A stretch of DNA of 64,000 bases from Candidatus Kapaibacterium sp. (GCA_025455065.1 JALONG010000002.1:422-64421); one strand, 5' to 3'. Positions 12,086 to 32,147 are shown, numbered from the stretch's first letter. Program-made: numbers and translations. The notes: a model not told the origin generated them from the sequence alone.

Positions 12086-12088
12086 CCA

Positions 12089-14449: not shown

Positions 14450-14685
14450 TCCTATGGTTCTCGGCAACCAAGGTTCTTCAGCCAAGGTATCAAGCGAGAG
14501 TATGCCTTCTTGGGCAGGCTCTTGCTTCGGAATGAGAGCTATCCGCGTGAGAGGTAAGGTTCTCGCACCTGACCAGTTACCTTTCCTTGACGATGATACA
14601 CTTCTTTGATGCAATACACTGAATTTGGATAGAGGTTCTCACTATGAAAACTCCATTATTCTGATGAAATCAACTATTCGGAATC

Positions 14686-14922
14686 ATAACTATTCAGGTA
14701 TCGGTAAAAACAGTGAGAGTGGGAGGGACGCGGACTTCAGAGGACTTGAGAGGACGAAGAAGGCTTGAGAAAAAACCTTACGGGGGCGCTCCCATTCATG
14801 CGTCTGTTCCCTGTCGTCTCACATTCTTTGAAGTCATTTTGTCCTTTGAAGTCATTTTGTCCTTTGAAGTCCTCTTGTTCTCTCAAGTCTGCGTTCTTTG
14901 TATTGCATACCTGAATAGTTAC
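14686..14922. mobile_element. MITE-like 237-bp foldback element with 16-bp terminal inverted repeats and flanking 8-bp direct repeats (TCGGAATC).
   Basis: Left terminus ATAACTATTCAGGTAT (14686..14701) matches the reverse complement of the right terminus ATACCTGAATAGTTAC (14907..14922) at 15 of 16 positions. TCGGAATC occurs at 14678..14685 and 14923..14930. Internally there are GGACTTCAGA-type 10-mers (14732..14771), their inverse (14866..14889), and an 18-bp tandem repeat TTGAAGTCATTTTGTCCT x2.3 (14828..14875). Confidence 0.45.
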
Positions 14923-14949
14923 TCGGAATCTTTTACCACCAAACAATTC

Positions 14950-17097
14950 ATGGTTTACCTTTTTAAACAATATCTCCGCAACCGACAAACCAAGCACCAA
15001 TGCGCTTCAGCCTATTGGCGAGGTGTTTGTTGTCGTCTTGTTTGGAAGGCAGGTTTGGTGTTGTTGTTATTGCAGGTGTTTCGACAATTTCCAGTAACAG
15101 CGCAATCAAATGTGGCACAACAGTACCGCTTTCAAGGCAAATTAACGCTTGCACAACAAGAAGCGGAAAAAGCATTGCTGACACGATTAGAACGTGCGCG
15201 AGACACCGTGCGTGTAGAGATTTTGGATTCGATTGCTTGGGTGTATCGCGGAACGGATTTTGGTCGTGCAATGTATTACGCCCAACAAGCTGCGCAGGAA
15301 GTTGCACGCTTGGGTTTTCCTCGCGTACGAGCAGAAAATAACAATTACATCGGCATTATTCATCGGAATTTAGGGAACTATCCCAAAGCAATGCAATCTT
15401 TTGATGAAGCACGACGTATTGCCGAGCAGTATGGTTACAGACGGGAATTGGGCTATGCGCTGAATAATATCGGCGAGATTTACCGTTTTCAAGAGAAATA
15501 TGCCGAAGCACGGGATTATGTTTTCAGAGCGCAAAAAATTTTTCTCCAACTCCGCGATACAAGCGGTTTGTACTATTCAGCGATTCGTCTGGGGGAAATA
15601 GCCCTGAGTCTTCAGAGTTACCCACAAGGATTGGCATACTTTCAAGAGGCAGAGCGGTATTCCCTTTTAACGCATAACAAGGTTTGGGAAGCAGGTGTGC
15701 TGAATCGTCTTGGACAGGTGCTACGTTTGCAGAAGCAGTACCAATCAGCACTGGAAGTTTTTTTGCGAGCCTTAGCGATTGCACGGACATTAGAACACGA
15801 TGAAGATGAACAATCACATATTTTGATAGAAATTGGGAAAACACATATTGCCGTAGGAAGTACGGATTCAGCAACTCTATACTTGAAACAGGGATTAGCC
15901 ATAGCAGAAGCAATCGGTATCAAGCAACGTGTCTTAGAATCCTCAAAAAACCTAGCGGAAATTTTTACCCGACAGCGCAGTTACGAAGAAGCATTGCGGT
16001 ATCGTACCTTACAAATGACAATGAAAGACTCCCTGTTTTCTGAATTAGGGCGGCGAGAAATCGAAAAAATTAGCGCACGGTACGAGCTTGAAAAGCAGCA
16101 AAATGATATTGCTGCTTTGAGTGCAGCTCAAAAACAGGAGCGTATTATCAGCACCGGCTTAGTGATTGGTGTGATGTTGCTGCTGGCTGTTGCGTTACTG
16201 CTGTATCGAAATGTTCGAGCCGAACAACGTGCAAACCAAGAAATAATGCGCCAGCAGGAGGTTTTGGAGCATCAAGCGTTGGAAATTGAAACGACCAACA
16301 CGACGCTGCAAGAACAAAATGAGGAACTTGCTGCGCTGAACACCGAAAAAACAGAATTGATGAACATTGTGGCACATGATTTGAAAAACCCGATTGGAGC
16401 AATCCATGGGCTTGCAGACTTGATTACAAGCGGTATGGTACAGGAAAAACAAGTACAGGAAACGGCAGAGCATATCGCGATGACAGCAGAACGAATGTTG
16501 CGGCTGGTGACGAATGTTCTTGATAGTTCAAAGTTTGAGGCAGGGATGACCCAACTTGAGGCTGTGGAATTTGACATCATTCCCGTTATTGAACTGACGT
16601 GTTCTCAATACCAAGCAGCAGCCGAAGCAAAAGGCATTTCGCTTCATGTTGAATCTCATGGTGAATCGGCTCTCGCATTGGCTAATGAACAAGCGCTCAT
16701 ACAGGTTGCTGACAATATCATTTCCAATGCCGTGAAATATTCTCCGCAGGGAAAAAAAGTGTGGGTGAGAATTTGGAGCAAGAATGAAGAGTATTCGCCA
16801 ATGCTCAATGGTGATTCGTTCAATAACCAAATGACCAACGACCAAAAAACAAATGGTAATGTCGTCCGCATAGAAGTTGTGGATGAGGGACCCGGTATTT
16901 CGGAAGAGGATATGAAAAAACTCTTTGGTAAATTTGCACGCCTCTCTGCCCGTCCCACAGGTGGTGAGCATAGTACGGGTTTAGGGTTGAATATCGTAAA
17001 AATGCTGGTCGAATTGATGAACGGGCGCGTGTGGTGTGAATCGAAACTTGGGTACGGCGCAACATTTATCGTGGAATTGCCGACGAATGTCTCGTAG
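14950..17097 (+). CDS. TPR-repeat sensor histidine kinase, type A core. The likely start at 14950 (MVYLF..LVLLLLQVF..AQS, signal-like) lies just downstream of a foldback element; the ORF track start at 14713 reads through repeats.
   Basis: TPR-like repeats, TM segment (LVIGVMLLLAVALLLY), coiled coil, ELMNIVAHDLKNPI and GGEHSTGLGLNIVKMLVELMNGRVWCESKLGYGATFIVELP. Short insertion NNQMTNDQKTNG. Confidence 0.8.
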   Translation: MVYLFKQYLRNRQTKHQCASAYWRGVCCRLVWKAGLVLLLLQVFRQFPVTAQSNVAQQYRFQGKLTLAQQEAEKALLTRLERARDTVRVEILDSIAWVYRGTDFGRAMYYAQQAAQEVARLGFPRVRAENNNYIGIIHRNLGNYPKAMQSFDEARRIAEQYGYRRELGYALNNIGEIYRFQEKYAEARDYVFRAQKIFLQLRDTSGLYYSAIRLGEIALSLQSYPQGLAYFQEAERYSLLTHNKVWEAGVLNRLGQVLRLQKQYQSALEVFLRALAIARTLEHDEDEQSHILIEIGKTHIAVGSTDSATLYLKQGLAIAEAIGIKQRVLESSKNLAEIFTRQRSYEEALRYRTLQMTMKDSLFSELGRREIEKISARYELEKQQNDIAALSAAQKQERIISTGLVIGVMLLLAVALLLYRNVRAEQRANQEIMRQQEVLEHQALEIETTNTTLQEQNEELAALNTEKTELMNIVAHDLKNPIGAIHGLADLITSGMVQEKQVQETAEHIAMTAERMLRLVTNVLDSSKFEAGMTQLEAVEFDIIPVIELTCSQYQAAAEAKGISLHVESHGESALALANEQALIQVADNIISNAVKYSPQGKKVWVRIWSKNEEYSPMLNGDSFNNQMTNDQKTNGNVVRIEVVDEGPGISEEDMKKLFGKFARLSARPTGGEHSTGLGLNIVKMLVELMNGRVWCESKLGYGATFIVELPTNVS

Positions 17098-17199
17098 AAG
17101 AACAAAAAATATATCCGATTGGAGGCGCTTAGATGAGGTACAAATGGAGATGCTGTCATACATGAAATCACAATTTTTTATTTTATTTCCACTGCGCAG

Positions 17200-18657
17200 A
17201 TGCTTGACCAAGTTATCGCATACTTTATGCCGGAAGCGCTGGCACACGATACCGTATCAGCGGAGAATCAACGTGCAAGGTTGATTATTTTGGCAGCCGG
17301 CATCATCATTGTTCTGGCATCCTCCAGTGTTGTTGGGTATGCTGTGTATGGCGCATATCTCCTCAGTGTTTTAGCATTTGCAGCTGTTCTTTTGAGCATT
17401 GCTGCATTGTTGTTATTGCGATATAAAGCCAGCCTACAAGCCTCGGTTATTGTGATGATAGTAGGTTTATTGGTGATATTGTTTGGTACAATTCTGTTCA
17501 CCGGCGGAGTGCTGTCACCGCTCATTTTTTCTCTCTATGCGCCGCCCATTTTCGGCTTGCTATTTTTTGACAGAAAGGTCATGGTGCAAATTTTTGCCGT
17601 GTGTGTGGTGTTTATTCTTGTGGTCATTGGATTACATTGGCAAAGAATCACGTTTCCTCTTCTGTATCCTGCGGAGTTACACGGTTATTGGCAAGGTGTA
17701 ATCTCCATTCCATTGTTGATAGGTGTTATCGGTGCATTTTTCTTTTCGGACACTGTTCGTCGTCAAACGCTCGCGGTATTGCTGCACGAGCGGGATTCTA
17801 TTCAAGAAAAAGTTCAAGAAGCCACAGCAGTTTTACAAGAGCAGCAAGAGAATATAAGCCGCATAAATACTTCTCTCGCCGAGCAGAACGTTCAACTGCA
17901 AAACGCGATTCAGGAAGCGGAAACAGCAAAAAAATTGCAAACTGATTTTCTCCGCAATGTCAGCCACGAGGTACGCACGCCACTTTCTGCGGTGTTGGGT
18001 TTTGCGGAAATTCTGCAAGACCGCGCCCATCCTGACGACATGACGAGTAAAGAATTTATTGAGCAGATTCACCTTGCGGGGCAGAATTTGCTGGATATGT
18101 TCAATAATATCTTAGCCCTTTCGACGATTGAAGCCTCTGGTGTGGAAGTGACATACGAACTGGGGCATCTGCCGACGTTATTGCATGATATTGAACGTTC
18201 TCTTGCTCAGAATATCGCACAAAAAGGGCTTGCACAGAGTATAACCTGGACAAAAGAATGTGAAAAACCCTTGCTTATTGATGCCCACAATATCCGAGAG
18301 ATATTGCGGTATTTGCTTGCCAATGCAGTAAAGTTCACCGAGCATGGTACAATCACTTTGCACTGCGAACTTGCTCTCATGCCCGATACAAGTGACATTC
18401 AGAGCCTTCGTCTGAGCGTACGAGATACGGGAGTCGGTATGGAGCAGCAATATTTGGAGAACCTTTTTCAGACGTTTCGTCAGCAAGACGCAAGTAAAAA
18501 TCGGCGTTACGGGGGATTAGGTTTGGGACTGTCAATCGTCAAACGGCTTGTGGATGCGATGCACGGCGTGATTCGCTGTGAATCAGTTGTGGGCGAAGGT
18601 ACAACGTTTATTGTGGATATTCCCCAGGGCAAAATAAAAAAACTACCAACCAACTGA
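17200..18657 (+). CDS. Polytopic membrane sensor histidine kinase, type B core; paralog of 2968..4416.
   Basis: About 6 TM helices, then [80 protein letters not shown]. Confidence 0.85.
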   Translation: MLDQVIAYFMPEALAHDTVSAENQRARLIILAAGIIIVLASSSVVGYAVYGAYLLSVLAFAAVLLSIAALLLLRYKASLQASVIVMIVGLLVILFGTILFTGGVLSPLIFSLYAPPIFGLLFFDRKVMVQIFAVCVVFILVVIGLHWQRITFPLLYPAELHGYWQGVISIPLLIGVIGAFFFSDTVRRQTLAVLLHERDSIQEKVQEATAVLQEQQENISRINTSLAEQNVQLQNAIQEAETAKKLQTDFLRNVSHEVRTPLSAVLGFAEILQDRAHPDDMTSKEFIEQIHLAGQNLLDMFNNILALSTIEASGVEVTYELGHLPTLLHDIERSLAQNIAQKGLAQSITWTKECEKPLLIDAHNIREILRYLLANAVKFTEHGTITLHCELALMPDTSDIQSLRLSVRDTGVGMEQQYLENLFQTFRQQDASKNRRYGGLGLGLSIVKRLVDAMHGVIRCESVVGEGTTFIVDIPQGKIKKLPTN

Positions 18658-18664
18658 AAACCGC

Positions 18665-19888
18665 ATGATTACTGTCGCCGAAGCAAAACGTCTTGTGCAG
18701 CAGCACATTCCCCAACCAACGATTATTGCCCAAAACCTTGCAGAAGCCTGCGGATTCACGCTTGCAGAGGACATTACCGCCCCCTTTCCCTCACCAAGAT
18801 TTACCAATAGTGCAATGGACGGCTTTGCGCTGCGGTTTTCGGCATCCTTCGCAGAACATCATGGTGAAGTCCGATGCACGATTGTTGGTGAAAGTGCAGC
18901 AGGGAAGCCATTTCAAGGCACGTTGCGCGAAGGGGAAGTCATATCCATCAGCACCGGTGCAGTCGTGCCGGATGCTGCCGATACGGTTATTCCGCAGGAA
19001 GATTGTGAGGTGAGTGGCGAAGTGGTGCGCATTGTCAAGCCCTTTCGCAAAGGTCAGTGGGTGCGCCAAAAGGGTGCAGAATATGACGAAGGCGCATTGG
19101 TTCTGCGTTCAGGGACGGTCTTGCGTCCGGCGCATTGTGCCTTAGCAGCGCAGCTTGGCTTACACACGCTTCCCGTGTATGCCGCTCCACGGGTGGCTTT
19201 GCTTGCCACTGGGCGCGAAATTTTTTCAACAAGTTCCGCTCAACACGCTGCCCCCAGACTACTTGACGAAGGGCAGATTTATGATGCTAATACGCCCATG
19301 CTCCAAGCCGCCGTGCGGGATGCCGGGGCAGAAGTGAAAATGCTCCGCAGCATAGATGACACGTTGGAAGCCACACTGGAAGCGCTTTCGGAGGCTTCTG
19401 CGAAAGCTGATATTATCTGCACGACGGGTGGTGTGTCGGTTGGCGAACATGATTTTATCAAACAAGCTGCACAAATACTGGGCTTTGAGACTATTTTTTG
19501 GCGCGTCCGCCAAAAGCCCGGAAAACCACTTTTCTTTGCAAAGCGTGATAATACCTTGCTTTTCGGCTTGCCCGGCAATCCCGTTTCGACCTTGATGTGC
19601 TTTTTGCACTATGTCCGCCCGACGATTGCAACGCTTCTGGTGCGCAGTGCAACGTGGCAAACAATAACGGCGCGAATGAGTAAAAGCCTCGTTAATGTTG
19701 GGGGACGGGCAGAATTTCTCCGTGTTCGTTTGGTACATGAGGCTGAACACCCAATGCAAAGCGCTGTTCCGCTTGACAAACAAGAATCGTTTATGCTGAC
19801 ATCGCTCACGGATGCAGACGGATTTGTGTTTGTGGATGTTGATGCAAACCTGAGCGAAGGTGCGCCGATTGAGGTAATGCTGTTTTGA
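18665..19888 (+). CDS. moeA: Molybdopterin molybdotransferase (MoeA/gephyrin E-domain family).
   Basis: 407 aa with SAMDGFAL, GEVISISTGAVVPDAADTVIPQE, TTGGVSVGEHDFIK and LPGNPVS, all characteristic of MoeA. Confidence 0.85.
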   Translation: MITVAEAKRLVQQHIPQPTIIAQNLAEACGFTLAEDITAPFPSPRFTNSAMDGFALRFSASFAEHHGEVRCTIVGESAAGKPFQGTLREGEVISISTGAVVPDAADTVIPQEDCEVSGEVVRIVKPFRKGQWVRQKGAEYDEGALVLRSGTVLRPAHCALAAQLGLHTLPVYAAPRVALLATGREIFSTSSAQHAAPRLLDEGQIYDANTPMLQAAVRDAGAEVKMLRSIDDTLEATLEALSEASAKADIICTTGGVSVGEHDFIKQAAQILGFETIFWRVRQKPGKPLFFAKRDNTLLFGLPGNPVSTLMCFLHYVRPTIATLLVRSATWQTITARMSKSLVNVGGRAEFLRVRLVHEAEHPMQSAVPLDKQESFMLTSLTDADGFVFVDVDANLSEGAPIEVMLF

Positions 19889-19906
19889 GCTAACTGTTTG
19901 TGTCAT

Positions 19907-20023
19907 ATAGGACTTTCGCAAAACCATACTTTTGAGGCAAGGGGTTGAAACCCCTTGTTGCGTAAGTCATTGTTTAACAAGGGGCTTTAGCCCCTTGCGA
20001 CTTGTTTTTGCGAAAGTCCTATC
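19907..20023. repeat. Nested palindromic element: a perfect 17-bp outer inverted repeat enclosing two near-identical GC-stem hairpins. Probably a bidirectional terminator or a REP-like element between convergent genes.
   Basis: ATAGGACTTTCGCAAAA (19907..19923) and TTTTGCGAAAGTCCTAT (20007..20023) are perfect reverse complements. Inside are CAAGGGGTTGAAACCCCTTG (19938..19957) and CAAGGGGCTTTAGCCCCTTG (19978..19997). Confidence 0.6.
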
Positions 20024-20030
20024 ATAAATT

Positions 20031-20157
20031 TTTGACGCAGATTTTCATGATTCAACAGATTATCATGATTGCTCAAAAACAAACAACAAAACGAAAACTA
20101 TCTCGAAAGCCTCTCAAAATCAGCGCAATCAGTTTAATCATGACAATCTGCGTCAAA
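20031..20157. repeat. Short element bounded by a 22-bp imperfect inverted repeat (MITE-like, no clear target-site duplication).
   Basis: TTTGACGCAGATTTTCATGATT (20031..20052) matches the reverse complement of AATCATGACAATCTGCGTCAAA (20136..20157) at 21 of 22 positions. The spacer is A-rich. Confidence 0.45.
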
Positions 20158-20217
20158 GAGTGAAATAACAGTCTCGTTTTGATATGATGGCTACTTGACA
20201 ATGTTTTGAGGCAGGTA

Positions 20218-21624
20218 TTATGCAGTTTTTTTACCAAGCAAAAAGTACGTTTTCATCATGCCGCGTCCTTTGATGTCAATAGAGCCGCGCTCTTCAAAGG
20301 TAAAGGTTTTTTCCAACAAACCTTGCACCACTTCGGAGCAGTGAATCTTCCCCGGTTCTCCGTGTGATTCCATACGCGAAGCCACGTTTACGGTGTCGCC
20401 CCACAAATCATAGGCGAATTTGTGCTGTCCAATAACTCCTGCCACAACTGTTCCCGCATGAAGTCCGATGCGGATTTGCAGTGAAAGTGCTTTTTCTTCG
20501 TTAAATGTTTTCATTGTTTGAAGCAGTTCCAATGCCGTATATGCTGCACATTCGGCGTGTTCATCGCTGCGCTGCGGAGCGCCGGAAACTGCCATGTAGC
20601 CGTCGCCAATGGTCTTGATTTTTTCGACATTGTGTTTACGCAAGACATTATCGAAAACAGTAAAAATTTCATTGAGCATTTGTACAAGCTCTTCCGCCGA
20701 CATTCGCGCCGCAAGCGTCGTGAAGCCTACAATGTCAATAAATATCACGGTTACGGATTGGTAGGTGTCGGCAATAAGTTTTTCGCCGTGTTTCATGCGC
20801 TCTGCTATCGGCGCGGGAAGCATATTAAGCAAAAGCTGCTCGGAGCGGTGGCGCTCGGCATCAAGTGCTTGATTGGAATAGAGCAGTTCTTCGTTTGCCG
20901 ATTGCAAATTATCCATCATGCCGTTAAACGCATTGATTAAGCCGCCGACTTCGTTATCAAACGCTCGAATATGAAGCCGCTGCGTCAAATCTCCCGCGCC
21001 GACGCGCTGCGCAACGGAATACAAGGCAATGATGGGTTTTGCCAAACGCCGCGCAAAATAAAATGCACCAAGCGAAGAAATAAACGCTCCCAAAACCCCG
21101 ATAAACAGCAGCACTGAACGGCTGCGATTGATACTTTCTTGCGTTGCGCGAGTATTTAGCGCCAACATCACCTCGCCCAAACGTTCTTGATTCACCACTG
21201 CAATTATCGGCACAGTGGCAATGGCAATATCACCATTCAGAAAAACGTGAAGAAGCGTGTCGGGCTGCGTGTTGGTGTAGGTGCGGACAAAAGGAAGAAG
21301 CATAGATGGGGTTTTGGTGTAGATGCTGTCTCCTGTTGCATTGCGAATGATGATGCCCTCGAAGTTGGATAATTGCTCAATTCCCTGCATGGATTTTGCT
21401 AAAAATTCACGGTCATTGAACGCCACGCCTCCGGCGCTTCCCGCAGCAGCGAGTTTCCCGATGGCTTGGGTTTCCTGCAATACAAACTCATCCCCACTTT
21501 CTTTTTGCTGAAGAGCTGAAGCAATCACGTTCAGTGCCGTTAATGCTACAATAAACAGCAAAATCAACGCTGAAATTTGTGCGCTGATTGACCACGAGGC
21601 AATTACGGAAAAGCGAGAAGTCAT
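20218..21624 (-). CDS. Class III adenylate/guanylate cyclase with a CHASE8-like periplasmic sensor and HAMP domain. Alternative upstream start at 21699.
   Basis: TM, periplasmic domain, TM, HAMP (FYFARRLAKPIIAL...GDLTQRL), then a cyclase homology domain (VTVIFIDIVGFT...TIGDGYMAVSG...LWGDTVNVASRME). The N-terminal sensor is homologous to that of HK 24737..26491. Confidence 0.85.
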   Translation of the reverse strand: MTSRFSVIASWSISAQISALILLFIVALTALNVIASALQQKESGDEFVLQETQAIGKLAAAGSAGGVAFNDREFLAKSMQGIEQLSNFEGIIIRNATGDSIYTKTPSMLLPFVRTYTNTQPDTLLHVFLNGDIAIATVPIIAVVNQERLGEVMLALNTRATQESINRSRSVLLFIGVLGAFISSLGAFYFARRLAKPIIALYSVAQRVGAGDLTQRLHIRAFDNEVGGLINAFNGMMDNLQSANEELLYSNQALDAERHRSEQLLLNMLPAPIAERMKHGEKLIADTYQSVTVIFIDIVGFTTLAARMSAEELVQMLNEIFTVFDNVLRKHNVEKIKTIGDGYMAVSGAPQRSDEHAECAAYTALELLQTMKTFNEEKALSLQIRIGLHAGTVVAGVIGQHKFAYDLWGDTVNVASRMESHGEPGKIHCSEVVQGLLEKTFTFEERGSIDIKGRGMMKTYFLLGKKTA

Positions 21625-21749
21625 TCTTGGGAATTTGAGTATAGAAGAAAACAGAGCAATGCGAATATAGGAAAAAACTTGCACAATACAAGGAATCATG
21701 CCATATTGAGGCGTTGCCGAAATGTTTCTGTTACTCTGATTTTTTTACC

Positions 21750-24113
21750 ATGAATACCTGTTATTGCGCAAGTATGATTCTTCGGAGCATTGCAATCTAC
21801 ATCGGTTGTGGGCTTGCGTTTGTGCTGGCACCCGCATCAATCGAAGCCCGCCAAGATAGTACCCAAGTTTCTGACACAGCAAGCAAAGAGGCATTAAAGA
21901 ATCTGCTGGATAACTACCTCGACCTCTCCGCCGTCAGCAGTGTGGATGTGGGCGGTGTATCGCGTACACAACAAACATCGGCAAAAAATGCTCCCGCAAC
22001 TGTGATAACCATTACTGCCGAACAAATTCGCTTACGCGGCTATACCTCGCTGACGGATGTTCTCATGGATTTGCCGGATTACAAAATCGAAGGTTTGGCA
22101 GGTCAAGAATCCGTGAATCGCGTGAATGTGCGTGGAGTTTTTGGGCAGGATAAATTTATCGTTCTTTTGGACGGAGTGCGTATTTCCTCGCCAACGAATG
22201 AGTTTATGCCGCTTTTGGAAAATTATCCTGTGCATTTGGCATTGCAAATTGAGGTGATTTACGGACCCGCTTCGTCGCTTTACGGTGCAGATGCAGTAAT
22301 GGGCGTTATCAACATCGTTTCCAAGCGTTCTTTTGATATGGACGGTGCGGTGGAAGTGCAGGCAAGCGGCTCCATGTACAATCGCTTCAACGGCAATATC
22401 CTTGCGGGGTTTAAGCTGAATGAGCAAGTAAATATCATGTTCGGTGCGCAGTACATGACCGACCAATTTCCCGATTTGCGGCAGTTTTATCCCGACGATT
22501 ACGGGCGTGAAAATACGCTGCAAACGGGCGTGTTCCCAACGGCATTTGGCACAATGCGCCCACAAAAGCCCATCAAACAACAGTGGGCTTCTCCGATGAC
22601 GGCTAACGCCCAATGGCTTAAAGTCGAAGCGGGAGGATTGACGATAAACCTGCTCCGAAGCCATGCGCGGGCAACAACGAACTGGGGCTATCCGCAATCC
22701 AACGCTGTGTACAACGACGACGTGTTTTTTGCACCCACCATCACAATGCTTTCCGGCACATACCAAACCACGATTGACCGCACAACGCTTATTTCCTCGC
22801 TGGTTTATAGCCAATACGATTTAGATCCGCTTTCTAATTATCGCAATTTGTTTAACGACCTCGGACCCGGGTACAAATACGCATTTGGCTCAATGTTCAA
22901 AGCCGAGCAGCTAGTTCAGCACACGCTTTTGGACAATCTCACGCTCAGTGGCAGCATCACGGCGGAAAGTTTTATGTCCGTACCAAAAACAACGGATATG
23001 GTGAATCCGCAAGTTACCAGTGTTGGGTTGAATTATCTGGAAGGGCGAATTTTCGGCACTATAAACGCCCAAAACCCGCTTGGAATCAGCGCAGACATTT
23101 TCAAAATTCCGTATATCAATATCGGAGGTTTTGCGCAAGCACAATGGTTGCCTGTGCCGCAAGTGACCGTCACCGTCGGCGGGAGATATGATGCAAACTC
23201 GCTTTTTGGCACGTCGTTTAATCCGCGTGTCGGTGTAGTGTGGTCGCCCTCACGGCAATTTACCGCAAAAGCAATGTACGGAACGGCGTATTTAGGTGCT
23301 GCGCCGCGTTATGCCTACGAACAGTTTGGTGCATTTAGCTACGACAGCGTGAACAACACGTATTCAAGCGGTTTTTGGAAATTAGCGAATCCAAATTTGA
23401 AGCCGATTTCTTCGCAAACCGCAGAGTTGAACGTTTCTACATTTCTCAGTGATGATTTGAGTTTAACGGCAAGCGGCTTTTTTACAACGCTTACGGGGCT
23501 TTTCCGCGAAGTGTCTGATGCTACATCGCTGAATATCTACAACGGACGGTACAAGGGTTATCCTGTTTCGACGATTATCATTTTCATCAATCAAGGACGG
23601 CAATACACCTACGGCGCAACGCTGAACGCAAGCTATATTGCGCTTCGGAATCAAACCGCAAAACTGGAATTCTTCGGCGCTCTTTCGTGGATTGACGGCG
23701 CGGTGAGCATCACGGACAATAACGCTGATTTCCGCGAAACGCCCTACGTTTCGCCCTTTGCCTTCAAAGGTGGTGTGCAAGTGACGTTTGAAAAATTTAA
23801 TTTGAGCGCACGGGTGATTTGGCAAGACCGCCAGCGCACCGCAGCATTTCAGGCTGCACGACCGGAACGGCGGCAAACGATTGACGGTTTTACGCTGGTC
23901 AATCTCACGGCACGGTACGGTTTTGCGTCGTGGTTGGAAGCATTTGTGCGTATTGATAACGCGCTGGATTCGCGGTACAGAGGTGTAACAGACCTCACCA
24001 ATCCTGAAGCCGTTGGCAGACCAAATGCCTCGGAGATTGAGTTTTTGCGAGGCGTTCCGCAACTCCCGTTCAGGGCGACGGCGGGTGTTCAACTGACGAT
24101 TGGAGGGCAGTAA
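21750..24113 (+). CDS. TonB-dependent outer-membrane receptor (plug plus beta-barrel). Start at 21750 or 21774.
   Basis: Signal peptide, plug-domain motifs (ATVITITAEQIRLRGYTSLTDVLMDLPD; IEVIYGPASSLYGADAVMGVINIVSK), and a long beta-rich C-terminal region. Confidence 0.8.
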   Translation: MNTCYCASMILRSIAIYIGCGLAFVLAPASIEARQDSTQVSDTASKEALKNLLDNYLDLSAVSSVDVGGVSRTQQTSAKNAPATVITITAEQIRLRGYTSLTDVLMDLPDYKIEGLAGQESVNRVNVRGVFGQDKFIVLLDGVRISSPTNEFMPLLENYPVHLALQIEVIYGPASSLYGADAVMGVINIVSKRSFDMDGAVEVQASGSMYNRFNGNILAGFKLNEQVNIMFGAQYMTDQFPDLRQFYPDDYGRENTLQTGVFPTAFGTMRPQKPIKQQWASPMTANAQWLKVEAGGLTINLLRSHARATTNWGYPQSNAVYNDDVFFAPTITMLSGTYQTTIDRTTLISSLVYSQYDLDPLSNYRNLFNDLGPGYKYAFGSMFKAEQLVQHTLLDNLTLSGSITAESFMSVPKTTDMVNPQVTSVGLNYLEGRIFGTINAQNPLGISADIFKIPYINIGGFAQAQWLPVPQVTVTVGGRYDANSLFGTSFNPRVGVVWSPSRQFTAKAMYGTAYLGAAPRYAYEQFGAFSYDSVNNTYSSGFWKLANPNLKPISSQTAELNVSTFLSDDLSLTASGFFTTLTGLFREVSDATSLNIYNGRYKGYPVSTIIIFINQGRQYTYGATLNASYIALRNQTAKLEFFGALSWIDGAVSITDNNADFRETPYVSPFAFKGGVQVTFEKFNLSARVIWQDRQRTAAFQAARPERRQTIDGFTLVNLTARYGFASWLEAFVRIDNALDSRYRGVTDLTNPEAVGRPNASEIEFLRGVPQLPFRATAGVQLTIGGQ

Positions 24114-24114
24114 G

Positions 24115-24645
24115 GTGAAACCTCTGCTACGAACATATCTCATTCCGTTCTGCCTTGTATTCAGCATCAACGCTGCACGTTCTGTTGGCGTTATTGCTCA
24201 AGAGATGCCGATTCGTGTTGAAACGCAAGCAGAAATTTTCCGCAGAATTTTTCTCTTCAATAAGTCGTTTGAGGGGAAGAAAAAACTAAAAATTGCGGTT
24301 GTGTATAGTGCTTTATCCCAAGATGTCAAAGATGCGGCTGTGGCGGCTTTTCAAGCGCAAGGTATGACGGCTGTGGCAATCACGGAATCTGCATTGGAGA
24401 AGAATCTTTCCGATGTTCAAGCGGTGTATATTGCGTCCGGTGTGATGAACGCCGAAAAAATTTGTGCGCAAAACCGCGTCCTGTCTATCACCGGCATCCC
24501 TACACTCACCAGAAACGGCAAGGCTTCGATTGCGCTTGGCACCAAAAACGGCAAAGCAAGCATCATTGTTCACCGCCAACAACTCAAAAACGAAGCACAG
24601 GAAATGTCGGCGGAACTCCTGCAAATGGCACAGGTGATACAGTAG
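24115..24645 (+). CDS. Periplasmic YfiR-like (DUF4154) family protein. Likely GTG start at 24115, immediately after the receptor stop codon.
   Basis: About 175 aa with a signal peptide. The sequence pattern (KIAVVY...; C-terminal ...GKASIIVHRQQLKNEAQEMSAELLQMAQV) resembles YfiR/DUF4154 proteins, which typically sit next to TonB-receptor and membrane-sensor genes. Confidence 0.5.
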   Translation: MKPLLRTYLIPFCLVFSINAARSVGVIAQEMPIRVETQAEIFRRIFLFNKSFEGKKKLKIAVVYSALSQDVKDAAVAAFQAQGMTAVAITESALEKNLSDVQAVYIASGVMNAEKICAQNRVLSITGIPTLTRNGKASIALGTKNGKASIIVHRQQLKNEAQEMSAELLQMAQVIQ

Positions 24646-24736
24646 GGGGGAAGTATAAAGCATGAACAATGAAGTATAACCAAAAATGTAAGGACTCTTG
24701 AGTATGCAAGATGTTCATACTTTATACGTTGAAGTT

Positions 24737-26491
24737 TTATCCTTTCAGGTTTTCCTCCTCCAAAAGCATCGCACTTTCAGCGTTTACCGTTTTTTCCGTT
24801 GCAACAAACTCCGCAATAAATGTCGCTCCTTTGCCTAATTCCGATTCACACCAAACGCGCCCGTTCATTGCTTCGACCATTTTTTTGACAATACTCAAAC
24901 CCAGACCGGTACTGTGTTCGCCGCCTGTCGGTCGTGCCGACAACCGTGCAAATTTCCCAAACAGTTTTTTCATATCCTCCGGCGAAATACCGGGACCTTC
25001 GTCTTGAACTTCAACGCGAATTTTTTGGTCATTGGTCATTAGCGATTGGTCATTAGTCTTGTGTGACGCTTCAGTATTCGTACCGCTTACATTATCACCT
25101 AACGACTGACCAATGACCAATGGCGAATGACCGCCAATCCTCACAAACACATTCTTCCCTTGAGGCGAGTATTTAACGGCATTAGAAACAAGGTTATCCA
25201 AAACCTGCCCGACTGCCATGCTATCACCCATGATATAGGCTTCTGAGGCTGTACGGTTGAAATGGAGAGTAATAGATTTTGCGACGGCTTGCGGCTGATA
25301 AAAATCAATAATACGTTCTAAAATAGGCGCGAGATTGACTGCTTGTGCGGTAAATTGCCGCCCGCCTCGTTCCAGTGCATTGACATCCAGAAGATTGCGA
25401 ATAAGTTCAAACATTTTCACTGAAGAATTGCGCATCATCTTTGCCATTTCTTTGATGTCGCTTTCGTCAAGTTTTTCATTTACCAGCATATCGGACATCC
25501 CTTGTATTGCGCTCAAAGGGTTTTTCAAATCGTGCGCTGCAATGCCTAAAAACTCATCTTTTTCTTGGCTCAATTCCTCCAACACCGCATTTTTACTCTG
25601 TATTTCTTCGTTTGCCTGAGCCAGCTCTAATGCGCGTTGTTCGGTTTCTTCTTTGGCAATAGTCAAACTGTGGTTCAAACTTGCAAGTTCGAGATTTGCT
25701 GCCTGCATTTCTTCATTGCTTGCTTCCAGTGTGTCGAGCATTTCATTGAACGTCGTTGTTAAAACGCCAACTTCACTCCGCAAGGCGCTTCTGTGCTGTG
25801 CAGGGGCGCGTTGCATAAGGTCTCCTGCGCTTACCCGTTTTGCAATGCGGGATAAATTCTGGATTGGGCGGGCAATGCGCTGAACAAGAAAAAATGCTGC
25901 AATCGCACAGACAATAGCTGCAACAAGACTGCCCAGCAAAATACCGATGCGGCTTCGCAAAATCGTTTCGTTCATTTCATTAGTATTCAGTACCACAATC
26001 ACTTCGCCCAAAAGTTCCGGGTTGTCGTCGGTGCGGACAGGCGCAATTACCGGAACAATCGCTATGGCACGACCTTTCTCGTCAAAAGCAACATTTATGC
26101 TGTCGGAGCGAGTGAATAAACCGCGAGAACGAAGATCGGGAGAGGCTTTGGAGTAATTTCGTGTGTAAGCAGTGTCGCCATTGCGATTTTTAATAATAAT
26201 GAGTTCAAAGGACTGTAAGCGCTCAATTCCCTGCATGGATTTTTGCAAAAATTCGCGGTCATCAAATGCTAACCCCCCACCACTGCCTGCTGCGGCAAGC
26301 TCACCGATTGCACGTGCTTGGCTCAACGTAAACTCCTCCCCGCTTCGGCGCTGTTGGAGCGACGAAGTAAGGACATTCAACCCTGTTACAAGGATGATAA
26401 TCATCAAAACTAACTGCGTGATTTGTCCGCCAATAGACGAGCGTAATGCCGTAAAGCGTGATAAAACCTGCTTCGGTGGTGCAGAATTCAT
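24737..26491 (-). CDS. Sensor histidine kinase, type A core, with a CHASE8-like periplasmic sensor, HAMP and coiled coil. Contains the TNDQ insertion.
   Basis: TM, periplasmic domain homologous to the adenylate cyclase sensor, TM, HAMP, EFLGIAAHDLKNPL, NAVKYSPQGKN and GGEHSTGLGLSIVKKMVEAMNGRVWCESELGKGATFIAEF. Insertion GTNTEASHKTNDQSLMTNDQ. Confidence 0.85.
   Translation of the reverse strand: MNSAPPKQVLSRFTALRSSIGGQITQLVLMIIILVTGLNVLTSSLQQRRSGEEFTLSQARAIGELAAAGSGGGLAFDDREFLQKSMQGIERLQSFELIIIKNRNGDTAYTRNYSKASPDLRSRGLFTRSDSINVAFDEKGRAIAIVPVIAPVRTDDNPELLGEVIVVLNTNEMNETILRSRIGILLGSLVAAIVCAIAAFFLVQRIARPIQNLSRIAKRVSAGDLMQRAPAQHRSALRSEVGVLTTTFNEMLDTLEASNEEMQAANLELASLNHSLTIAKEETEQRALELAQANEEIQSKNAVLEELSQEKDEFLGIAAHDLKNPLSAIQGMSDMLVNEKLDESDIKEMAKMMRNSSVKMFELIRNLLDVNALERGGRQFTAQAVNLAPILERIIDFYQPQAVAKSITLHFNRTASEAYIMGDSMAVGQVLDNLVSNAVKYSPQGKNVFVRIGGHSPLVIGQSLGDNVSGTNTEASHKTNDQSLMTNDQKIRVEVQDEGPGISPEDMKKLFGKFARLSARPTGGEHSTGLGLSIVKKMVEAMNGRVWCESELGKGATFIAEFVATEKTVNAESAMLLEEENLKG
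25027..25140 (-). repeat. Heptamer-repeat tract plus an inverted copy, forming a roughly 110-bp imperfect palindrome inside a coding sequence (HK 24737..26491).
   Basis: On the + strand, TTGGTCATTGGTCATTAGCGATTGGTCATTAGTC (left) and GACTGACCAATGACCAATGGCGAATGACCGCC (right) are approximately reverse-complementary. They encode TNDQSLMTNDQ and HSPLVIGQS on the gene strand. Confidence 0.55.
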
Positions 26492-26696
26492 CGGAATATT
26501 CTACCAAATTGATGAAAGATAAGATTTCGGCGCAAAATAACACATTTTACGAGGCTTGCAAGGCGAATACGCAATACCTCCAAAATTTTGCACCATTGCT
26601 GCCCACTGACCAAAAAAGCAAGCCCGTTCAGCACTCGCCTAGTGCTGAACGGGAATACTCAATACTACAAACCAATAGCTACAAACCAAAACCAAA

Positions 26697-28145
26697 TCAC
26701 AGGGAATTGAGAAACGCCATTAGTGCATCGCGGTCACCTTTAGGCAGGCGGCGCACGTAATCACGCGAAGCAAGTGCCTCGCCGCCGTGCCAGAGAATTG
26801 CTTCCATGATGTTTCGTGCGCGTCCGTCGTGGAGCAGGAACGTGTGACCATTCACTGCTGCCGTCAAACCCAAGCCCCAAAGCGGTGTTGTGCGCCATTC
26901 GCGCCCATTGGCGAGGAAATCAGGGCGGTTGTCTGCCAAACCTTCGCCCATGTCGTGCAAGAGCATATCGGTATAAGCGAAAATCGTTTGATTCGAGACT
27001 TCGGGAACGCCTTGCAAATTGCCAGTTTGCATAGAAGGCGTGTGGCAAGCGGAGCATTTTGCTTGGTCGAAGAGAAGTTTTCCGCGCTGTACGCTTGCAT
27101 CATTCACATTGCGCCGTGCCGGAACGCCCAGAGTGCGCGTGTAATGGACAACATCGTTTAGTATGCGGTCGTTCACTTCGGGAGGATGTGCGGCGATTGC
27201 CTGCATCTGTCCTGCGGAGCTTTCTGTTGGGAAGAGTGATGTTGTTACGCCCATGTCGCCATTGTATGCACCGGCGTTTTGCTGACGAAGCGAGGGTTGA
27301 TTTGCTTTCCAGCCAAAACGCCCAAGCGTCACGCGCTGCGCCTGCACATCCCACACGCGATTGACTTTGCCGGAAATGCCGTCATTATTGCGGTCGTTTA
27401 CGTCCTCACCTGCAACGATGGTTTCTTCGGGAATTGCTTCCAACAAGCCCAAGCCAAAGACGGGTGAAGCAATACGCGGCGAAATCTGCACTCCGGCAGG
27501 GAAGGGTAAATACGTGTTCTGGATTTGGTAACGCGGGGAGCGAAGTGAGTAAGTGCCGCCGTCGGTGAATGTGCCGGGCTGCTCGGTGTAGGCAATCGAA
27601 AATTTGCCTTCGGGCTGAACTCCTGCTACGGCTTGGTCTTGCAACTGACCGCCGAAACCCGTGATTCCAAGAGGTTCTCCGTGTGCATCCGTTCCCATTT
27701 GACTAAGCCTGAGCAGCAAAGAATTGAAGCCTTTGTCGTCAAGCGACGGCTTTCCGCGCCCGTCCCCCACGTGGCAGCCTTCGCAAGAAACGTGATGAAA
27801 TATCGGTCCTAATCCGCCCGGATTCGTCGCTGTGGGGCGGGGCGCGTGTTCTGCGGCAAATGCTTCGTCTCCCGCATCATGCCTACGAAGACTTTCGGCA
27901 TTAAGGTTTGGTGCGGCTTGCGAGAACGCATTTTCATCGGTCAAAAAAACGGTTGTGGCTCCGCCTGCCAAGCGTTCATCAACGGCGCGGGGAGGGCGTT
28001 GGCGGACGGCGGCGAGGGATTCCCCTGAGAGTTCTTCGGTTTGGACGGGTAGAATTTCTTCGGTCGAACAGCCTGTAAATACTGACCCCGCGAAGATAGC
28101 GGCGCAGATGAGACCTGCTTTGCGCCTTTGCATAAACGTTTTCAT
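26697..28145 (-). CDS. Di-heme c-type cytochrome of the DUF1111 family (putative di-haem oxidoreductase/peroxidase-like), lipoprotein.
   Basis: Lipoprotein signal (..AGSVFTGCS) and two CxxCH motifs (CEGCH, CSACH) spaced as in DUF1111 proteins; about 480 aa mature protein. Confidence 0.65.
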   Translation of the reverse strand: MKTFMQRRKAGLICAAIFAGSVFTGCSTEEILPVQTEELSGESLAAVRQRPPRAVDERLAGGATTVFLTDENAFSQAAPNLNAESLRRHDAGDEAFAAEHAPRPTATNPGGLGPIFHHVSCEGCHVGDGRGKPSLDDKGFNSLLLRLSQMGTDAHGEPLGITGFGGQLQDQAVAGVQPEGKFSIAYTEQPGTFTDGGTYSLRSPRYQIQNTYLPFPAGVQISPRIASPVFGLGLLEAIPEETIVAGEDVNDRNNDGISGKVNRVWDVQAQRVTLGRFGWKANQPSLRQQNAGAYNGDMGVTTSLFPTESSAGQMQAIAAHPPEVNDRILNDVVHYTRTLGVPARRNVNDASVQRGKLLFDQAKCSACHTPSMQTGNLQGVPEVSNQTIFAYTDMLLHDMGEGLADNRPDFLANGREWRTTPLWGLGLTAAVNGHTFLLHDGRARNIMEAILWHGGEALASRDYVRRLPKGDRDALMAFLNSL

Positions 28146-28254
28146 AACGTTTCTCCAAAAAATAGTGAACAAAAATAGAGCGTTGCTTGCTGTCATTGCT
28201 CTTTGCTAACGATGCAATTTGCAATAAACACCGCTTCAATCCTTGTTCCTGGAA

Positions 28255-28346
28255 GTCATGTTCTTCTGTTCTCATTGGTCATTTTTTTGCCCTCCAAATC
28301 GTCATGTTTCTCTGTGCCAAAACGTCATACTGTTTTCTGCCAAAAG
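28255..28346. repeat. Four tandem degenerate 23-bp repeats, each beginning GTCAT, upstream of the propeller HK gene at 28428.
   Basis: gtcatgttcttctgttctcattg / gtcatttttttgccctccaaatc / gtcatgtttctctgtgccaaaac / gtcatactgttttctgccaaaag, with period 23. Confidence 0.5.
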
Positions 28347-28427
28347 AGAAACTTTTTCACCACACAACCGTAGATGACAACGGACGCTGATAATCTCTTG
28401 TTGTTCACCCATTGTTCCGTGTCGTGT

Positions 28428-31400
28428 ATGCAACGTTTTGTTCACGCTGTGCGGCTTTTTCCGCAGATAGTACGCTTATTCCGTTGCGCTTCAATCGGCA
28501 TTGATGCGCACGTGGGGTTGTTGCCGTTGATACTCGTTTTGCTGCCGTTGTATTGTGTTGTTGCCGCTCCCGAAACGCCTGTATTTCCTAAACGCGACCT
28601 CAAATTTGACCATTACAATCTTGCTGAAGGATTATCGCAAAGCAGCGTATTTGCTGTTCTCCAAGACCGCTACGGCTTTTTGTGGATAGGCACACAAGAC
28701 GGTCTGAACCGTTACGACGGCTATCGTTTCACGCATTATCGTCATAATCCCGACAATCCCCACTCACTCGCGTCAAATTTTATCAGTGCGCTCTACGAAG
28801 ACCGTTCGGGAACATTATGGGTGGGGACGCAAGAAGGCGGTCTCCATGTTTTTGACCGCACAACCGAAGGTTTTACGCGGTATCGCACAAATCCTGCCGA
28901 GCCCTTCAGCACAAAATTTATTGGAAGCAATTTTATCCGCGGCATCACCGAAGATGCGTCAGGAACGCTCTGGTTGGCTACGCTTGGTGCTGTCAGTACG
29001 TTCAACAAAAATACAGGAGAATGGCGGCATATCACGTCGAATACAAAGAATCCCGATGACGCAAAAAGCCTCAGTTCGCCGGCAACGTGCGGTATTCTGC
29101 GGGATAACGAGGGAATGATGTGGATAGCGACTTTGGGAGGCGGTCTCAACCGCATTAACCCGCAAACCGGCATTGTTACTCGCATCAATGACCATTCGGT
29201 GGGCTTTCGTATTTCCGGGCGCAATGTAACGGCGCTTTATCAAGACAATACAGGAAATATCTGGGTTGGAACGGACAACGGTGTGGATATTTTGCGGCTT
29301 CGTGAACAGAAATCTGAATATCTGCCATTGAACGAAACGATGAAAACAGGCGGTGTAGAAAGACCTGTCAGAGCATTTCAACAAGAGAGTGATTCCGTGA
29401 TGTGGATTGGCGTGGAATTTGGCGGTTTGACGGTGCTGAATATGCGCACGGGTAAGCAATCAAGCTACCGTCACGAACAAACCCGACTCTCAAGCCTCAG
29501 CAACGATTTTCTTTGGTGCATTTACCGCGACAAACAAGGTGCGTTCTGGGTTGGCACGCAAGGCGGCGGTGTGAATGTCTTCAATCCATTTGCAAGGAAA
29601 TTTACGTCCTTCAGGCAGGAAATCAATAATCCTTTCAGTCTGAACAATAATTTTGTTCGCGCAATGTCCGAAGACGGCAAAGGCACTCTTTGGGTTGGAA
29701 CCGAAGGTGGCGGTTTGAGCCGATATGACCGCCTCACGCAGCGCTTCACTGCTTATACCTTTGATAAAAAAGCGCGAAGTGGCATCAGCCATAATATCGT
29801 TCGTGCGATTGTCTATGACGCAAAGCGTGATGCACTCTGGGTAGGCACAGGCGGCGGATTGAACAAACTCGACCTGAAAAGCGGCGTGTTTACGGTCTTT
29901 CGCGCTGATAAGAACAATCCCCACGCAATTTCGGATGATGCCGTGCGGACGCTCTTGCTTGACGATGACGGTACACTGTGGGTAGGAACGGACAACGGTG
30001 GTGTGAATCATTTGAATCCCGAAACAAAGCGTTTTCGTGCGTATCAACATAACCCCAATGACGCTGCAAGCCTGAGTTTTAATGCCGTACTGTCTTTGCA
30101 CAAAGACCGCTTGGGAACGCTTTGGGTGGGAACGCTCAGGGGATTGAACAAACTGAACGCCGCAAATGGCACATTTACGGTCTTTGCTGCTGATAATACC
30201 AAAGCAACTATGCTGCAAAGTGGAAACATTCGTGCTATTCATGAAGACCGTAAAGGGCGATTCTGGATTGCAACGTGGGGCGGCGGGCTGCACCAATTCG
30301 ACCGCCAAAGCGGACATTTTGAGGTGTTCCGAGAAAAAGACGGGTTGCCGAATGATGCGGTGTACGGGATTTTGGAAGACAAATCGGGACATCTTTGGCT
30401 GACCACAAATAATGGACTTGCTCGCTTTAATCCTGACGAGCGCTCATTTCGCACCTATACCGTGGAAGACGGTTTGCAAAGTAACGAATTTAACGGAGGG
30501 GCGTATTTTCAAGGTGCTTCGGGTAGAATGTATGTCGGAGGTGTAAACGGACTAAGTGAATTTTGCCCCGAAACGATTACCGACAATGATGTGCCGCCTG
30601 CGGTTGTAATAACGGGCTTCAAAAAGTTCAATAAGCCCGTACAGTTGTGGAAAGACCTTAATGCCGAGCCGGAAATTACGTTGCCGCATGACGATAATTT
30701 TTTCTCAATCGAATTTGCCGCGCTGAGTTTTGCCAACGCAAAGAAAAATCGGTATCTCTACAAAATGGACGGCTTCGATAGGCAATGGATTGATGCCGGA
30801 ACAAGCAAGGAAGCGGCATACACGAACTTAGACCCGGGAAGCTATGTTTTTCGCGTTAAAGCCTGCAACAACGACGGTGTGTGGAATGAGGAAGGCGCAC
30901 GGCTGAGAATCAGCATTCTGCCGCCTTGGTGGATGTCGCTGTGGTTTCGAGCGGGAATAGTGCTGGGGTTTGTCGGAACAGGAGGGGCGTGGTTTTGGAT
31001 GCGCCTGCGTAATGAGCGGCGTCGCAGAGCAGAGTTAGAGCGCTTGGTGCATATTCGCACCGAGCAGTTGGAAACAAGCAACCATGAGCTTTCGCAGGCA
31101 AACGAAGAAATTCAGACCCATATCCAAACCCTCAGCGAACAGGCATGGGAAATTGCCACGATGAATACGCAATTACAATCGCGCAACCAAGAATTAGAGC
31201 GTTTGAACACGGAAAAAAATGAATTTTTGGGCATTGCTGCACATGATTTGAAAAACCCGCTTTCGAGTATTGTGCTGATGACAGAAATGCTCCAAATGCA
31301 GCATAAAACCTTAGCGTCAGAACAAGTACAGGAAAAACTCGGGCGGATTGAATCAACGGCTATGCGGATGCGGGATATCATCACCAATTTGCTGGATGTT

Positions 31401-32024: not shown

Positions 32025-32147
32025 CTGATTTTTTGTCAAGAGGGAAGTCGCAAACTTTTCTTGCATTTTCATCAATGCCCCGTTATTGTGAACTACATCC
32101 GCGCTATTATTCCCGTTTTGATAGTTCGTCATTTCACTGCATCCTTG

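Follow-up and report, generated by a model that had tools for sequence, protein, structure and literature searches.

The 64-kb stretch of Candidatus Kapaibacterium sp. DNA analyzed here (GCA_025455065.1, JALONG010000002.1:422-64421; referred to as the window, within which all coordinates are counted) harbours at 20218–26491 a conserved core of three genes encoding (i) a membrane-bound class III adenylate cyclase, (ii) a TonB-dependent receptor (TBDR) and (iii) a secreted YfiR-like protein of the DUF4154 family. These are followed by a gene for a histidine kinase (HK), which carries the same periplasmic sensor-HAMP module as the cyclase. The locus may tentatively be viewed as encoding a Yfi-type periplasmic-partner signalling module with cyclic AMP (cAMP) output, and the underlying action of the YfiR-like protein on the cyclase is regarded here as possible, just short of probable. 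The gene order given in the initial annotation, i.e., cyclase (−), TBDR (+), DUF4154/YfiR-like (+), HK (−) and di-haem protein (−), was reproduced by an open reading frame (ORF) map combined with a Pfam scan. The features of the locus are as follows (TM, transmembrane helix):

20218..21624, minus strand: membrane class III adenylate cyclase, 468 amino acids; TM1, periplasmic PAS/PDC-like domain, TM2, HAMP, signalling helix, cyclase domain
21025..21591, minus strand: cyclase sensor module; TM1, periplasmic domain of ~135 amino acids, TM2
21664..21707, no strand assigned: 44-nt block between cyclase and TBDR genes, probable shared promoter/operator
21774..24113, plus strand: TBDR, 779 amino acids; signal peptide, conserved N-terminal extension of ~40 residues, plug, barrel
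24115..24645, plus strand: secreted YfiR/HmsC-family (DUF4154) protein, 176 amino acids; GTG start; PF13689
24737..26491, minus strand: HK, 584 amino acids; sensor-HAMP, HisKA and HATPase_c (Pfam), without receiver domain; convergent with the YfiR-like gene
25856..26443, minus strand: HK sensor module; TM1, periplasmic domain, TM2

Conserved genes for cyclase, receptor and YfiR-like protein

Related loci (designated by L-numbers) represent four independent cases: the window together with contigs L007 and L015, L010, the mutually identical L001 and L008, and L002. In all four, the DUF4154 gene is immediately preceded by a TBDR gene, and a divergent cyclase gene is present in each of the three whose contig extends far enough, that of L002 stopping short of the expected cyclase position. 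L010, with a 92 % identical YfiR-like protein, has the same layout including the sensor-sharing HK and the di-haem oxidoreductase (DHOR). L001 contains genes for MoeA (molybdopterin molybdenumtransferase), cyclase (−), TBDR (+), the DUF4154 protein (+) and then an HK of the 7TMR-DISM type; identities to the window amount to 72 % for the cyclase, 74 % for the TBDR, 70 % for the DUF4154 protein and 57 % for the neighbouring MoeA, and the downstream genes differ. In L002 (~80 % identity), the TBDR and DUF4154 genes are followed by a PilJ-type HK gene. With respect to the co-occurrence of all four genes, as looked for following the initial annotation, the conserved core is cyclase/TBDR/YfiR-like protein, and the sensor-sharing HK accompanies it in the closest relatives only. 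A tblastn search of plasmid sequences gave no matches.

The predicted membership of the small periplasmic protein in DUF4154 was borne out by profile search, since PF13689 ("YfiR/HmsC-like") matches the 24115..24645 product with 27.6 bits (gathering score 24.9; E 3.5e-6) across the whole domain, residues 59-177 aligning to profile positions 24-142 of 143. PF13689 was found in all five close homologues detected, one of which, from a Bacteroidota metagenome-assembled genome, is named "YfiR/HmsC family protein" by NCBI. From the translation, read by eye, a signal peptide (MKPLLRTYLIPFCLVFSINAARSVGVIA, followed by QE) is apparent with a basic n-region, a hydrophobic core and a cleavage-like VIA/QE site. 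The gene is the only one for a DUF4154 protein in the window, and a profile scan of genome contigs with the DUF4154 clade retrieved a single locus, identical to L001. Its GTG start is located 1 nt past the TBDR stop, with the same spacing in L010; the TBDR and YfiR-like genes form a translationally coupled operon. The independent gene call of a JGI metagenome contig encoding an identical HK (L015) reproduces both the 779- and the 176-amino-acid product.

For the TBDR, Pfam yields Plug (E 9.9e-17) and barrel (E 1.1e-27) matches only; in the absence of an STN signalling domain, classification as an STN-type transducer was rejected. The ~40-residue N-terminal extension has no family match. Together with the plug it is 86–96 % identical to the L001 counterpart, compared to 68–82 % for the barrel. 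Translation probably starts at 21774, consistent with the signal peptide and with other gene calls; a longer form starting from TTG at 21714 is a possible ORF, and such extended versions (also the L010 gene call, 4604..7039) run into the conserved intergenic block.

This 44-nt block (AATATAGGAAAAAACTTGCACAATACAAGGAATCATGCCATATT) is almost invariant in an alignment of the window, L001 and L010, although the proteins are only 70–74 % identical, and is better conserved than the flanking coding sequence. An exact 18-mer of it recurs in L001, L007, L008 and L010; within the window the block is single-copy, with zero chance matches expected. By eye, a promoter-like pair, TTGCAC-17 nt-CATATT, is recognizable on the plus strand, and the block probably functions as shared divergent promoter/operator. 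A reading as CRP/FNR-type palindrome was dropped, the 4-bp symmetry CTTG-N7-CAAG being all that could be found and not convincing. Rfam has no match to the block and, across 19000..29000, detected neither a riboswitch nor any other RNA element; scans for sigma-70 promoters and terminators remained at background level, except for a hairpin at 26623..26653.

The cyclase (Pfam: HAMP, E 4.7e-13; Guanylate_cyc, PF00211, E 4.7e-67, 225.6 bits) is encoded in an ORF spanning 20218..21699 (−), with the ATG at 21624 almost certainly being the start: it suits the position of TM1 and other gene calls, whereas the longest-ORF start (ATG 21699) runs into the conserved block, and the near-identical contig L007 matches the 468-amino-acid form end to end. 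Besides the catalytic-domain match, all key residues of a class III cyclase are present in the translation as read by eye, i.e., the metal-binding Asp residues (in FIDIVGF and IGDGYM), the adenine-specifying pair (Lys in KTIGD, Asp in YDLWGD) and the Asn/Arg transition-state pair (in TVNVASR), with roles that we take from established knowledge of this class. Since all three sets are present, the protein is predicted to be an active adenylate cyclase. Orthologues are encoded in L001/L008 (72 % identity, as above), L010 and L007, and one forms the sensor-bearing protein cluster P0007.

A moeA gene lies directly downstream of, and convergent with, the cyclase gene (window 18665..19888; L001 4683..5921; L010 1889..3103), and a SulP/MOT1-like transporter is encoded at 41948..43666 of the window. 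Any role of the TBDR in molybdenum or tungsten supply would be pure speculation.

Sensor module of cyclase and histidine kinase

That cyclase and HK share one sensor, as initially proposed, is confirmed by 46 % identity of their N-terminal TM1-periplasmic-TM2-HAMP parts over 265 amino acids (BLASTP, E 7e-56). Both flanking enzymes indeed combine a periplasmic domain with HAMP, the architecture of YfiN, the target of YfiR. With the cyclase periplasmic domain as tblastn query, the only other copy in the window was found at 25949..26377 (52 % identity, E 6e-32). The two proteins are most alike where helix 1 reaches farthest from the membrane (columns 26-50 of the alignment, 80 %) and least so in columns 76-100 (25 % identical, pLDDT ~65), the equivalent of which usually forms the pocket lid in PDC domains.

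An AlphaFold2 model of the cyclase sensor, built on an alignment of eight sequences (A2), reached a pLDDT of 80.7 and a pTM of 0.69, and has a long helix and a second one, then two strands, another helix and three strands ahead of TM2; the single-sequence model (pLDDT 47) was useless. Foldseek matches in the PDB include WalK (E 5.8e-8, TM-score 0.67), LuxQ, erWalK, CitA and Tlp3 (E 1e-4 to 1e-3) and, further, the LapD-like CdgS9 and PctC. By this model, the sensor is predicted to be a single extracytoplasmic PAS/PDC (Cache-like) domain of generic fold. The periplasmic domain of YfiN was modelled as PAS on CitA (Malone 2012, PMC3375315). The fold class is thus common to the YfiN model, which by itself is no proof of CHASE8 membership.

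With a profile of the two sensors, HMMER was run exhaustively over 1.84 billion representative proteins and revealed only seven genuine clusters bearing the module (P-numbers, P0006-P0012): the window HK (identical to P0006), one cyclase (P0007), three HKs (P0008-P0010) and two methyl-accepting chemotaxis proteins (MCPs; P0011, P0012). Since no more than these seven clusters were found, with cyclase, HK and MCP outputs, the sensor-HAMP unit is modular yet confined to a narrow clade. The result of a word-indexed protein search, which was blank for the cyclase sensor despite 77 % identical proteins in the collection, is not readable as absence. Used against metagenome contigs, the two window sensors retrieved the window's own organism only.

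Contexts of the other sensor proteins vary. The P0008 and P0010 kinase genes are each preceded by a DUF4835 gene (L003 4837..9659; L012 7049..9647) and have no YfiR-like gene; that of L003 is flanked by two TPR-adenylate cyclase genes. P0011 and P0012 sit in unrelated contexts, with a lone TBDR gene ~6 kb from P0012, and the P0009 contig is too short for its neighbourhood to be assessed.

The sole invariant aromatic residue of the sensor family (8 of 8 members) is a Phe closing helix 1, in GGVAF-NDR of the cyclase and GGLAF-DDR of the HK. A C-terminal hydrophobic patch of YfiR binds, as defined genetically, to AAVVF, a motif exposed where the YfiN PAS domain is farthest from the membrane (Malone 2012, PMC3375315). 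The invariant Phe is placed by hhalign on that of AAVVF-ADG in E. coli DgcN, in a weak alignment (E 0.007, probability 5 %). The tips most similar to AAVVF are those of the two window sensors; in members without a YfiR-like neighbour, the Phe is preceded by polar or charged residues (VIF, VTF, ITF, LDF, VDF). With a small sample and an alignment that is not significant, the resemblance may serve as a lead, not as evidence.

Proposed periplasmic-partner signalling and competing explanations

In the favoured scheme, the YfiR-like protein would dock on the cyclase at that tip of its periplasmic domain which points away from the membrane, near the invariant Phe of GGVAF/GGLAF, and HAMP would thereby be held in a single signalling state. 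The amount of YfiR-like protein free to bind would change upon an event at the TBDR, either (a) in a YfiB-like manner, ligand loading exposing the conserved N-terminal segment, which would capture the YfiR-like protein, or (b) in a LuxP-like manner, the imported ligand being handed to the YfiR-like protein. The cAMP output of the cyclase would then switch, and the HK would be a second, lineage-specific client of the same periplasmic partner. Of these steps, the link from YfiR-like protein to cyclase is the likeliest; whether regulation is positive or negative is a guess, as is the exact role of the TBDR. In favour of the scheme are the full-length PF13689 match, the 1-nt spacing of TBDR and YfiR-like genes, the conserved synteny with its 44-nt block, the NCBIfam models matched by the sensor-HAMP modules (see below), the structural matches to sensors that read a partner protein, the placement of the invariant Phe on that of AAVVF, and the published YfiR-YfiN[PAS/HAMP] pairs with HK and MCP outputs, to which the fusions of the present sensor family to cyclase, HK and MCP outputs are comparable. 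One may further speculate that pairs of TBDR and YfiR-like protein represent a distinct kind of cell-surface signalling, in which a soluble protein of the YfiR family conveys receptor occupancy or transport to PAS/HAMP membrane enzymes, here with cAMP and phosphorelay outputs and no sigma/anti-sigma pair, but this generalization is considered improbable.

A number of results weigh against the favoured scheme. With respect to the sensor, the label "CHASE8-like" assigned in the initial annotation could not be upheld: Pfam CHASE8 (PF17152) reaches 14.4 bits (E 0.047; cutoff 27) with the cyclase and does not match the HK, and among the eight members of the sensor family, sub-threshold scores are restricted to two cyclases (P0007 ~18 bits, E 0.001-0.0035). 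Aligned by hhalign to the DgcN sensor of E. coli, or to a small enterobacterial alignment of it, the family gave E 0.007-0.009 with a probability of ~5 %, and HMMER comparison with an enterobacterial CHASE8 profile was not significant in either direction; the underlying CHASE8 alignment is narrow, because the DgcN sensor search returned mostly enterobacterial, truncated or frameshifted fragments.

With respect to the YfiR-like protein, identity to E. coli and P. aeruginosa YfiR is 16–17 % (alignment A5) and none of the four YfiR cysteines is kept, the mature form containing a single Cys. In YfiR, the Cys71-Cys110 disulfide is redox-sensitive and Cys145-Cys152 is essential (PMC4655355). Pocket residue L166 aligns to an Arg, but the hydrophobic pattern of the C-terminus is otherwise matched, F162 corresponding to Ile, I169 to Leu, V176 to Met and L181 to Leu. 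Neither phmmer of the protein against the PDB nor hhalign of its clade against E. coli YfiR yielded a match or a meaningful alignment, respectively.

A curated trio in NCBIfam (release 20) speaks for the scheme by its combination of components: it joins the TBDR family TOL_0244 (NF053590), the periplasmic YfiR-like family TOL_0243 (NF053591) and the entry "sensor histidine kinase, YfiR-like protein-associated" (NF053592), whose model covers an N-terminal domain with 223 positions. All three are matched by the window proteins, but weakly. The window TBDR scores 69 bits with NF053590 (cutoff 645), in the plug region only, and the YfiR-like protein 17.7 bits with NF053591 (E 0.0027; cutoff 125). 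NF053592 is the best NCBIfam match of both sensor-HAMP modules, but with 48.7 bits (cyclase) and 52.2 bits (HK) these fall short of the cutoff of 194, and most of the score derives from HAMP, ~15 bits remaining without it; the same model ranks first or nearly so for P0007, P0011 and P0012. The DgcN/YfiN model matches with 30.6 bits (cyclase) and 44.9 bits (HK). Since the scores are far below the curated cutoffs, the window proteins are not members of the trio.

With respect to the locus, the synteny is based on only four loci from close kin. The cyclase and HK genes run opposite to the YfiR-like gene, whereas yfiR and yfiN share one direction, and no pair of TBDR and DUF4154 genes is found within 8 kb of HKs P0008 and P0010 or MCPs P0011 and P0012. 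The sensor-sharing HK adjoins the DUF4154 gene in only two of the four loci (window/L015 and L010), unrelated HKs occupying its place in L001 and L002. With HKs encoded by 15 of the window's 34 large ORFs, an HK beside any of its genes is unremarkable, and the shared sensor alone is specific.

It is possible, though some way from probable, that the HK is a neighbour for historical reasons, having acquired its sensor-HAMP part by local duplication or domain shuffling in an HK-rich, rearranging region, and is not regulated by the YfiR-like protein. In line with this are the abundance of HK genes, the 7TMR-DISM and PilJ types downstream of DUF4154 in L001 and L002, the orthologues P0008 and P0010 adjoining DUF4835 rather than YfiR-like genes, and the periplasmic domains of cyclase and window HK being more similar to each other (54 % identity) than the latter is to those of HKs P0008-P0010 (36–43 %). 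Yet, among the 15 window HKs the only one bearing the sensor is that adjoining the YfiR-like gene, the arrangement is kept in L010, and both proteins have retained the tip motif (GGVAF, GGLAF).

Rather unlikely is a locus of independent parts, in which TBDR and YfiR-like protein constitute an uptake or envelope module, cyclase and HK each sense a small molecule directly by their PDC domain, and adjacency reflects co-regulation at most. Direct sensing of small molecules through a PDC domain is known from CitA, DcuS and Tlp3, and ligand-binding PDC sensors (CitA, Tlp3, PctC) resemble the sensor fold no less than partner-binding ones do; without HAMP, the HK sensor matches the DcuS/MalK family (E 3.6e-4). 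In addition, sensor relatives work elsewhere without an adjoining TBDR/DUF4154 pair, the genes are on opposite strands, and YfiR has the fold of half a periplasmic binding protein (PMC4655355), so the YfiR-like protein could be a periplasmic carrier. However, the order of cyclase, TBDR and YfiR-like genes is kept together with the 44-nt block while the surroundings reshuffle; the region corresponding to the PDC pocket lid is the least conserved and least confidently modelled part, the tip around the invariant Phe being the most conserved; and NCBIfam curators have separately linked TBDR, YfiR-like and sensor-HK genes.

Very doubtful is a LuxP/LuxQ-like co-sensor, in which the YfiR-like protein, instead of being a repressor released by sequestration, would be an adaptor that captures a TBDR-imported ligand and only then attaches to, or detaches from, the PDC domains of cyclase and HK. 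In its favour, the LuxP-regulated periplasmic domain of LuxQ is among the top structural matches, a TBDR without STN makes a diffusible periplasmic intermediate plausible, and P. aeruginosa YfiR accommodates vitamin B6 and L-Trp, though weakly, in the hydrophobic pocket used for partner binding (PMC4887326). Against it, the affinities of YfiR are in the tens of millimolar, DUF4154 amounts to only half of a binding-protein fold (the N-terminal half, in type I proteins) and has no hinge-enclosed site (PMC4655355), and no Rfam element in the scanned region points to a TBDR substrate.

Should the signalling link between YfiR-like protein and cyclase hold, the principle of the "periplasmic repressor" YfiR would extend from c-di-GMP in Proteobacteria to cAMP in Bacteroidota, the TBDR/YfiR-like gene pairs already grouped by NCBI curators would gain a function, and a concrete case would be at hand of an outer-membrane transporter signalling inward by a soluble protein instead of an anti-sigma factor. 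Without such a link, the genes would form an ordinary nutrient-uptake operon within a kinase-rich region.

Gene neighbourhood and relation to known systems

Two further features adjoin the HK gene:

26623..26653, minus strand: terminator-like hairpin between DHOR and HK genes; 13-bp stem with 8 G-C pairs, then a T-run
26697..28196, minus strand: DHOR (PF06537, E 8.2e-110), a neighbour outside the conserved core

Since the strong hairpin divides the DHOR from the HK gene, the former represents a separate transcription unit; it is present in L010 and L015, is missing from L001 and L002, and was rejected as a part of the module. The HK gene array spans 149..36663 and 50327..60074 of the window, with sensors of the Reg_prop/Y_Y_Y, TPR, PilJ, 7TMR-DISM, PAS or HAMP types. 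None of its 15 HKs contains a receiver domain, and the 64 kb lack genes for response regulators and for regulators binding cNMP. In many of these HKs, the C-terminal ATPase motif (KFARLSAQPTGGEHSTGLGLSIVKKMVEAMNG) is nearly the same, and the array, which is rearranged in relatives, suggests a paralogous expansion with exchanged sensors. In L002, a 122-amino-acid ORF beside the PilJ-type kinase gene (4291..4659) consists of an HK ATPase C-terminus only (55 % identical to the window kinase) and is probably a leftover of array rearrangement. At 37508..41951, a DabA gene (E 2e-220) followed by that of a Proton_antipo_M protein represents a DabAB-type pair for inorganic carbon uptake, after which comes the SulP-family permease gene.

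HAMP-regulated class III adenylate cyclases are known from mycobacteria (Rv3645 type). The window cyclase has their layout of TM, HAMP, signalling helix and cyclase domain as well as the adenine-specifying Lys/Asp pair, but differs by a folded periplasmic PAS/PDC domain between two TM helices and by a linked YfiR-family gene. TonB-dependent transducers such as FecA-FecR-FecI possess an STN domain, an anti-sigma factor and an extracytoplasmic function sigma factor, none of which is present in the window system, where the proposed relay would consist of a soluble YfiR-like protein and a second messenger. Periplasmic PAS/PDC domains signalling through a partner protein occur in LuxP-LuxQ, WalK-YycH/YycI and LapD-LapG. 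LuxQ, WalK and a LapD-like protein are among the best structural matches of the sensor model and illustrate that a single PDC domain is able to read a protein partner; the likeness is at the level of fold only (7–18 % identity), and their partner proteins belong to unrelated families.

The NCBIfam trio combines the same kinds of components in adjacent genes as the window, i.e., a TBDR, a YfiR-like protein and a membrane protein with N-terminal sensor-HAMP module, a combination kept in L010 and, for the cyclase, in L001/L008. It differs in that the reference TBDR comprises ~600 amino acids (779 in the window) and that the conserved partner in the window is a cyclase, not a kinase. TOL_0244 is a TBDR of Thalassolituus induced by long-chain alkanes (PMC6304351), and nothing ties the window TBDR to alkanes.

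The YfiBNR system (TpbB, AwsXRO or HmsCDE; Pseudomonas, E. coli, Yersinia) shares with the window a DUF4154 protein that is secreted, an enzyme in the membrane combining a PAS-like periplasmic domain with HAMP and an output domain, a co-encoded outer-membrane partner and, possibly, a hydrophobic sensor tip ending in Phe (AAVVF in YfiN; GGVAF and GGLAF in the window). In contrast, the output of YfiBNR is GGDEF, compared to Guanylate_cyc and HisKA/HATPase_c and no GGDEF in the window; the outer-membrane partner is an OmpA/Pal-like lipoprotein (YfiB) instead of a TBDR, with no OmpA-family match among the 34 large ORFs; and yfiR is co-transcribed with the gene for the enzyme, whereas the window YfiR-like gene accompanies that of the outer-membrane protein. 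Furthermore, the YfiR-like protein is only distantly similar and lacks the YfiR cysteines, and CHASE8 is not detected at threshold. The initial proposal of a rewired YfiBNR-like module is, therefore, supported with regard to the DUF4154 protein, the sensor-HAMP enzymes, the TBDR/YfiR-like/cyclase synteny and the comparable trio recognized by NCBIfam, but not with regard to the CHASE8 label, the constancy of the HK, the YfiR cysteines and the four sensor clusters located far from any TBDR/DUF4154 pair.

An in silico survey had found the YfiR-YfiN[PAS/HAMP] core to be widespread and modular, with HK, HPT, GGDEF-EAL and MCP outputs, mostly without YfiB, and to extend to distant phyla including Rhodothermus (Malone 2012, PMC3375315). 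The pairs described there are usually syntenic (yfiN-yfiR), whereas the enzyme genes of the window are divergent or convergent. Hence, the idea of rewired outputs had already been published in silico for HK and MCP, and only the cyclase output and TBDR partner are absent from that work, in which "adenylate" and "TonB" do not occur (0 occurrences each); a literature search found no paper on TBDR-linked YfiR homologues. In conclusion, the modular YfiR-PAS/HAMP concept with its HK and MCP outputs is largely known, and the cyclase output, the coupling to a TBDR and the setting in Bacteroidota (Kapaibacteriaceae-like) are new.

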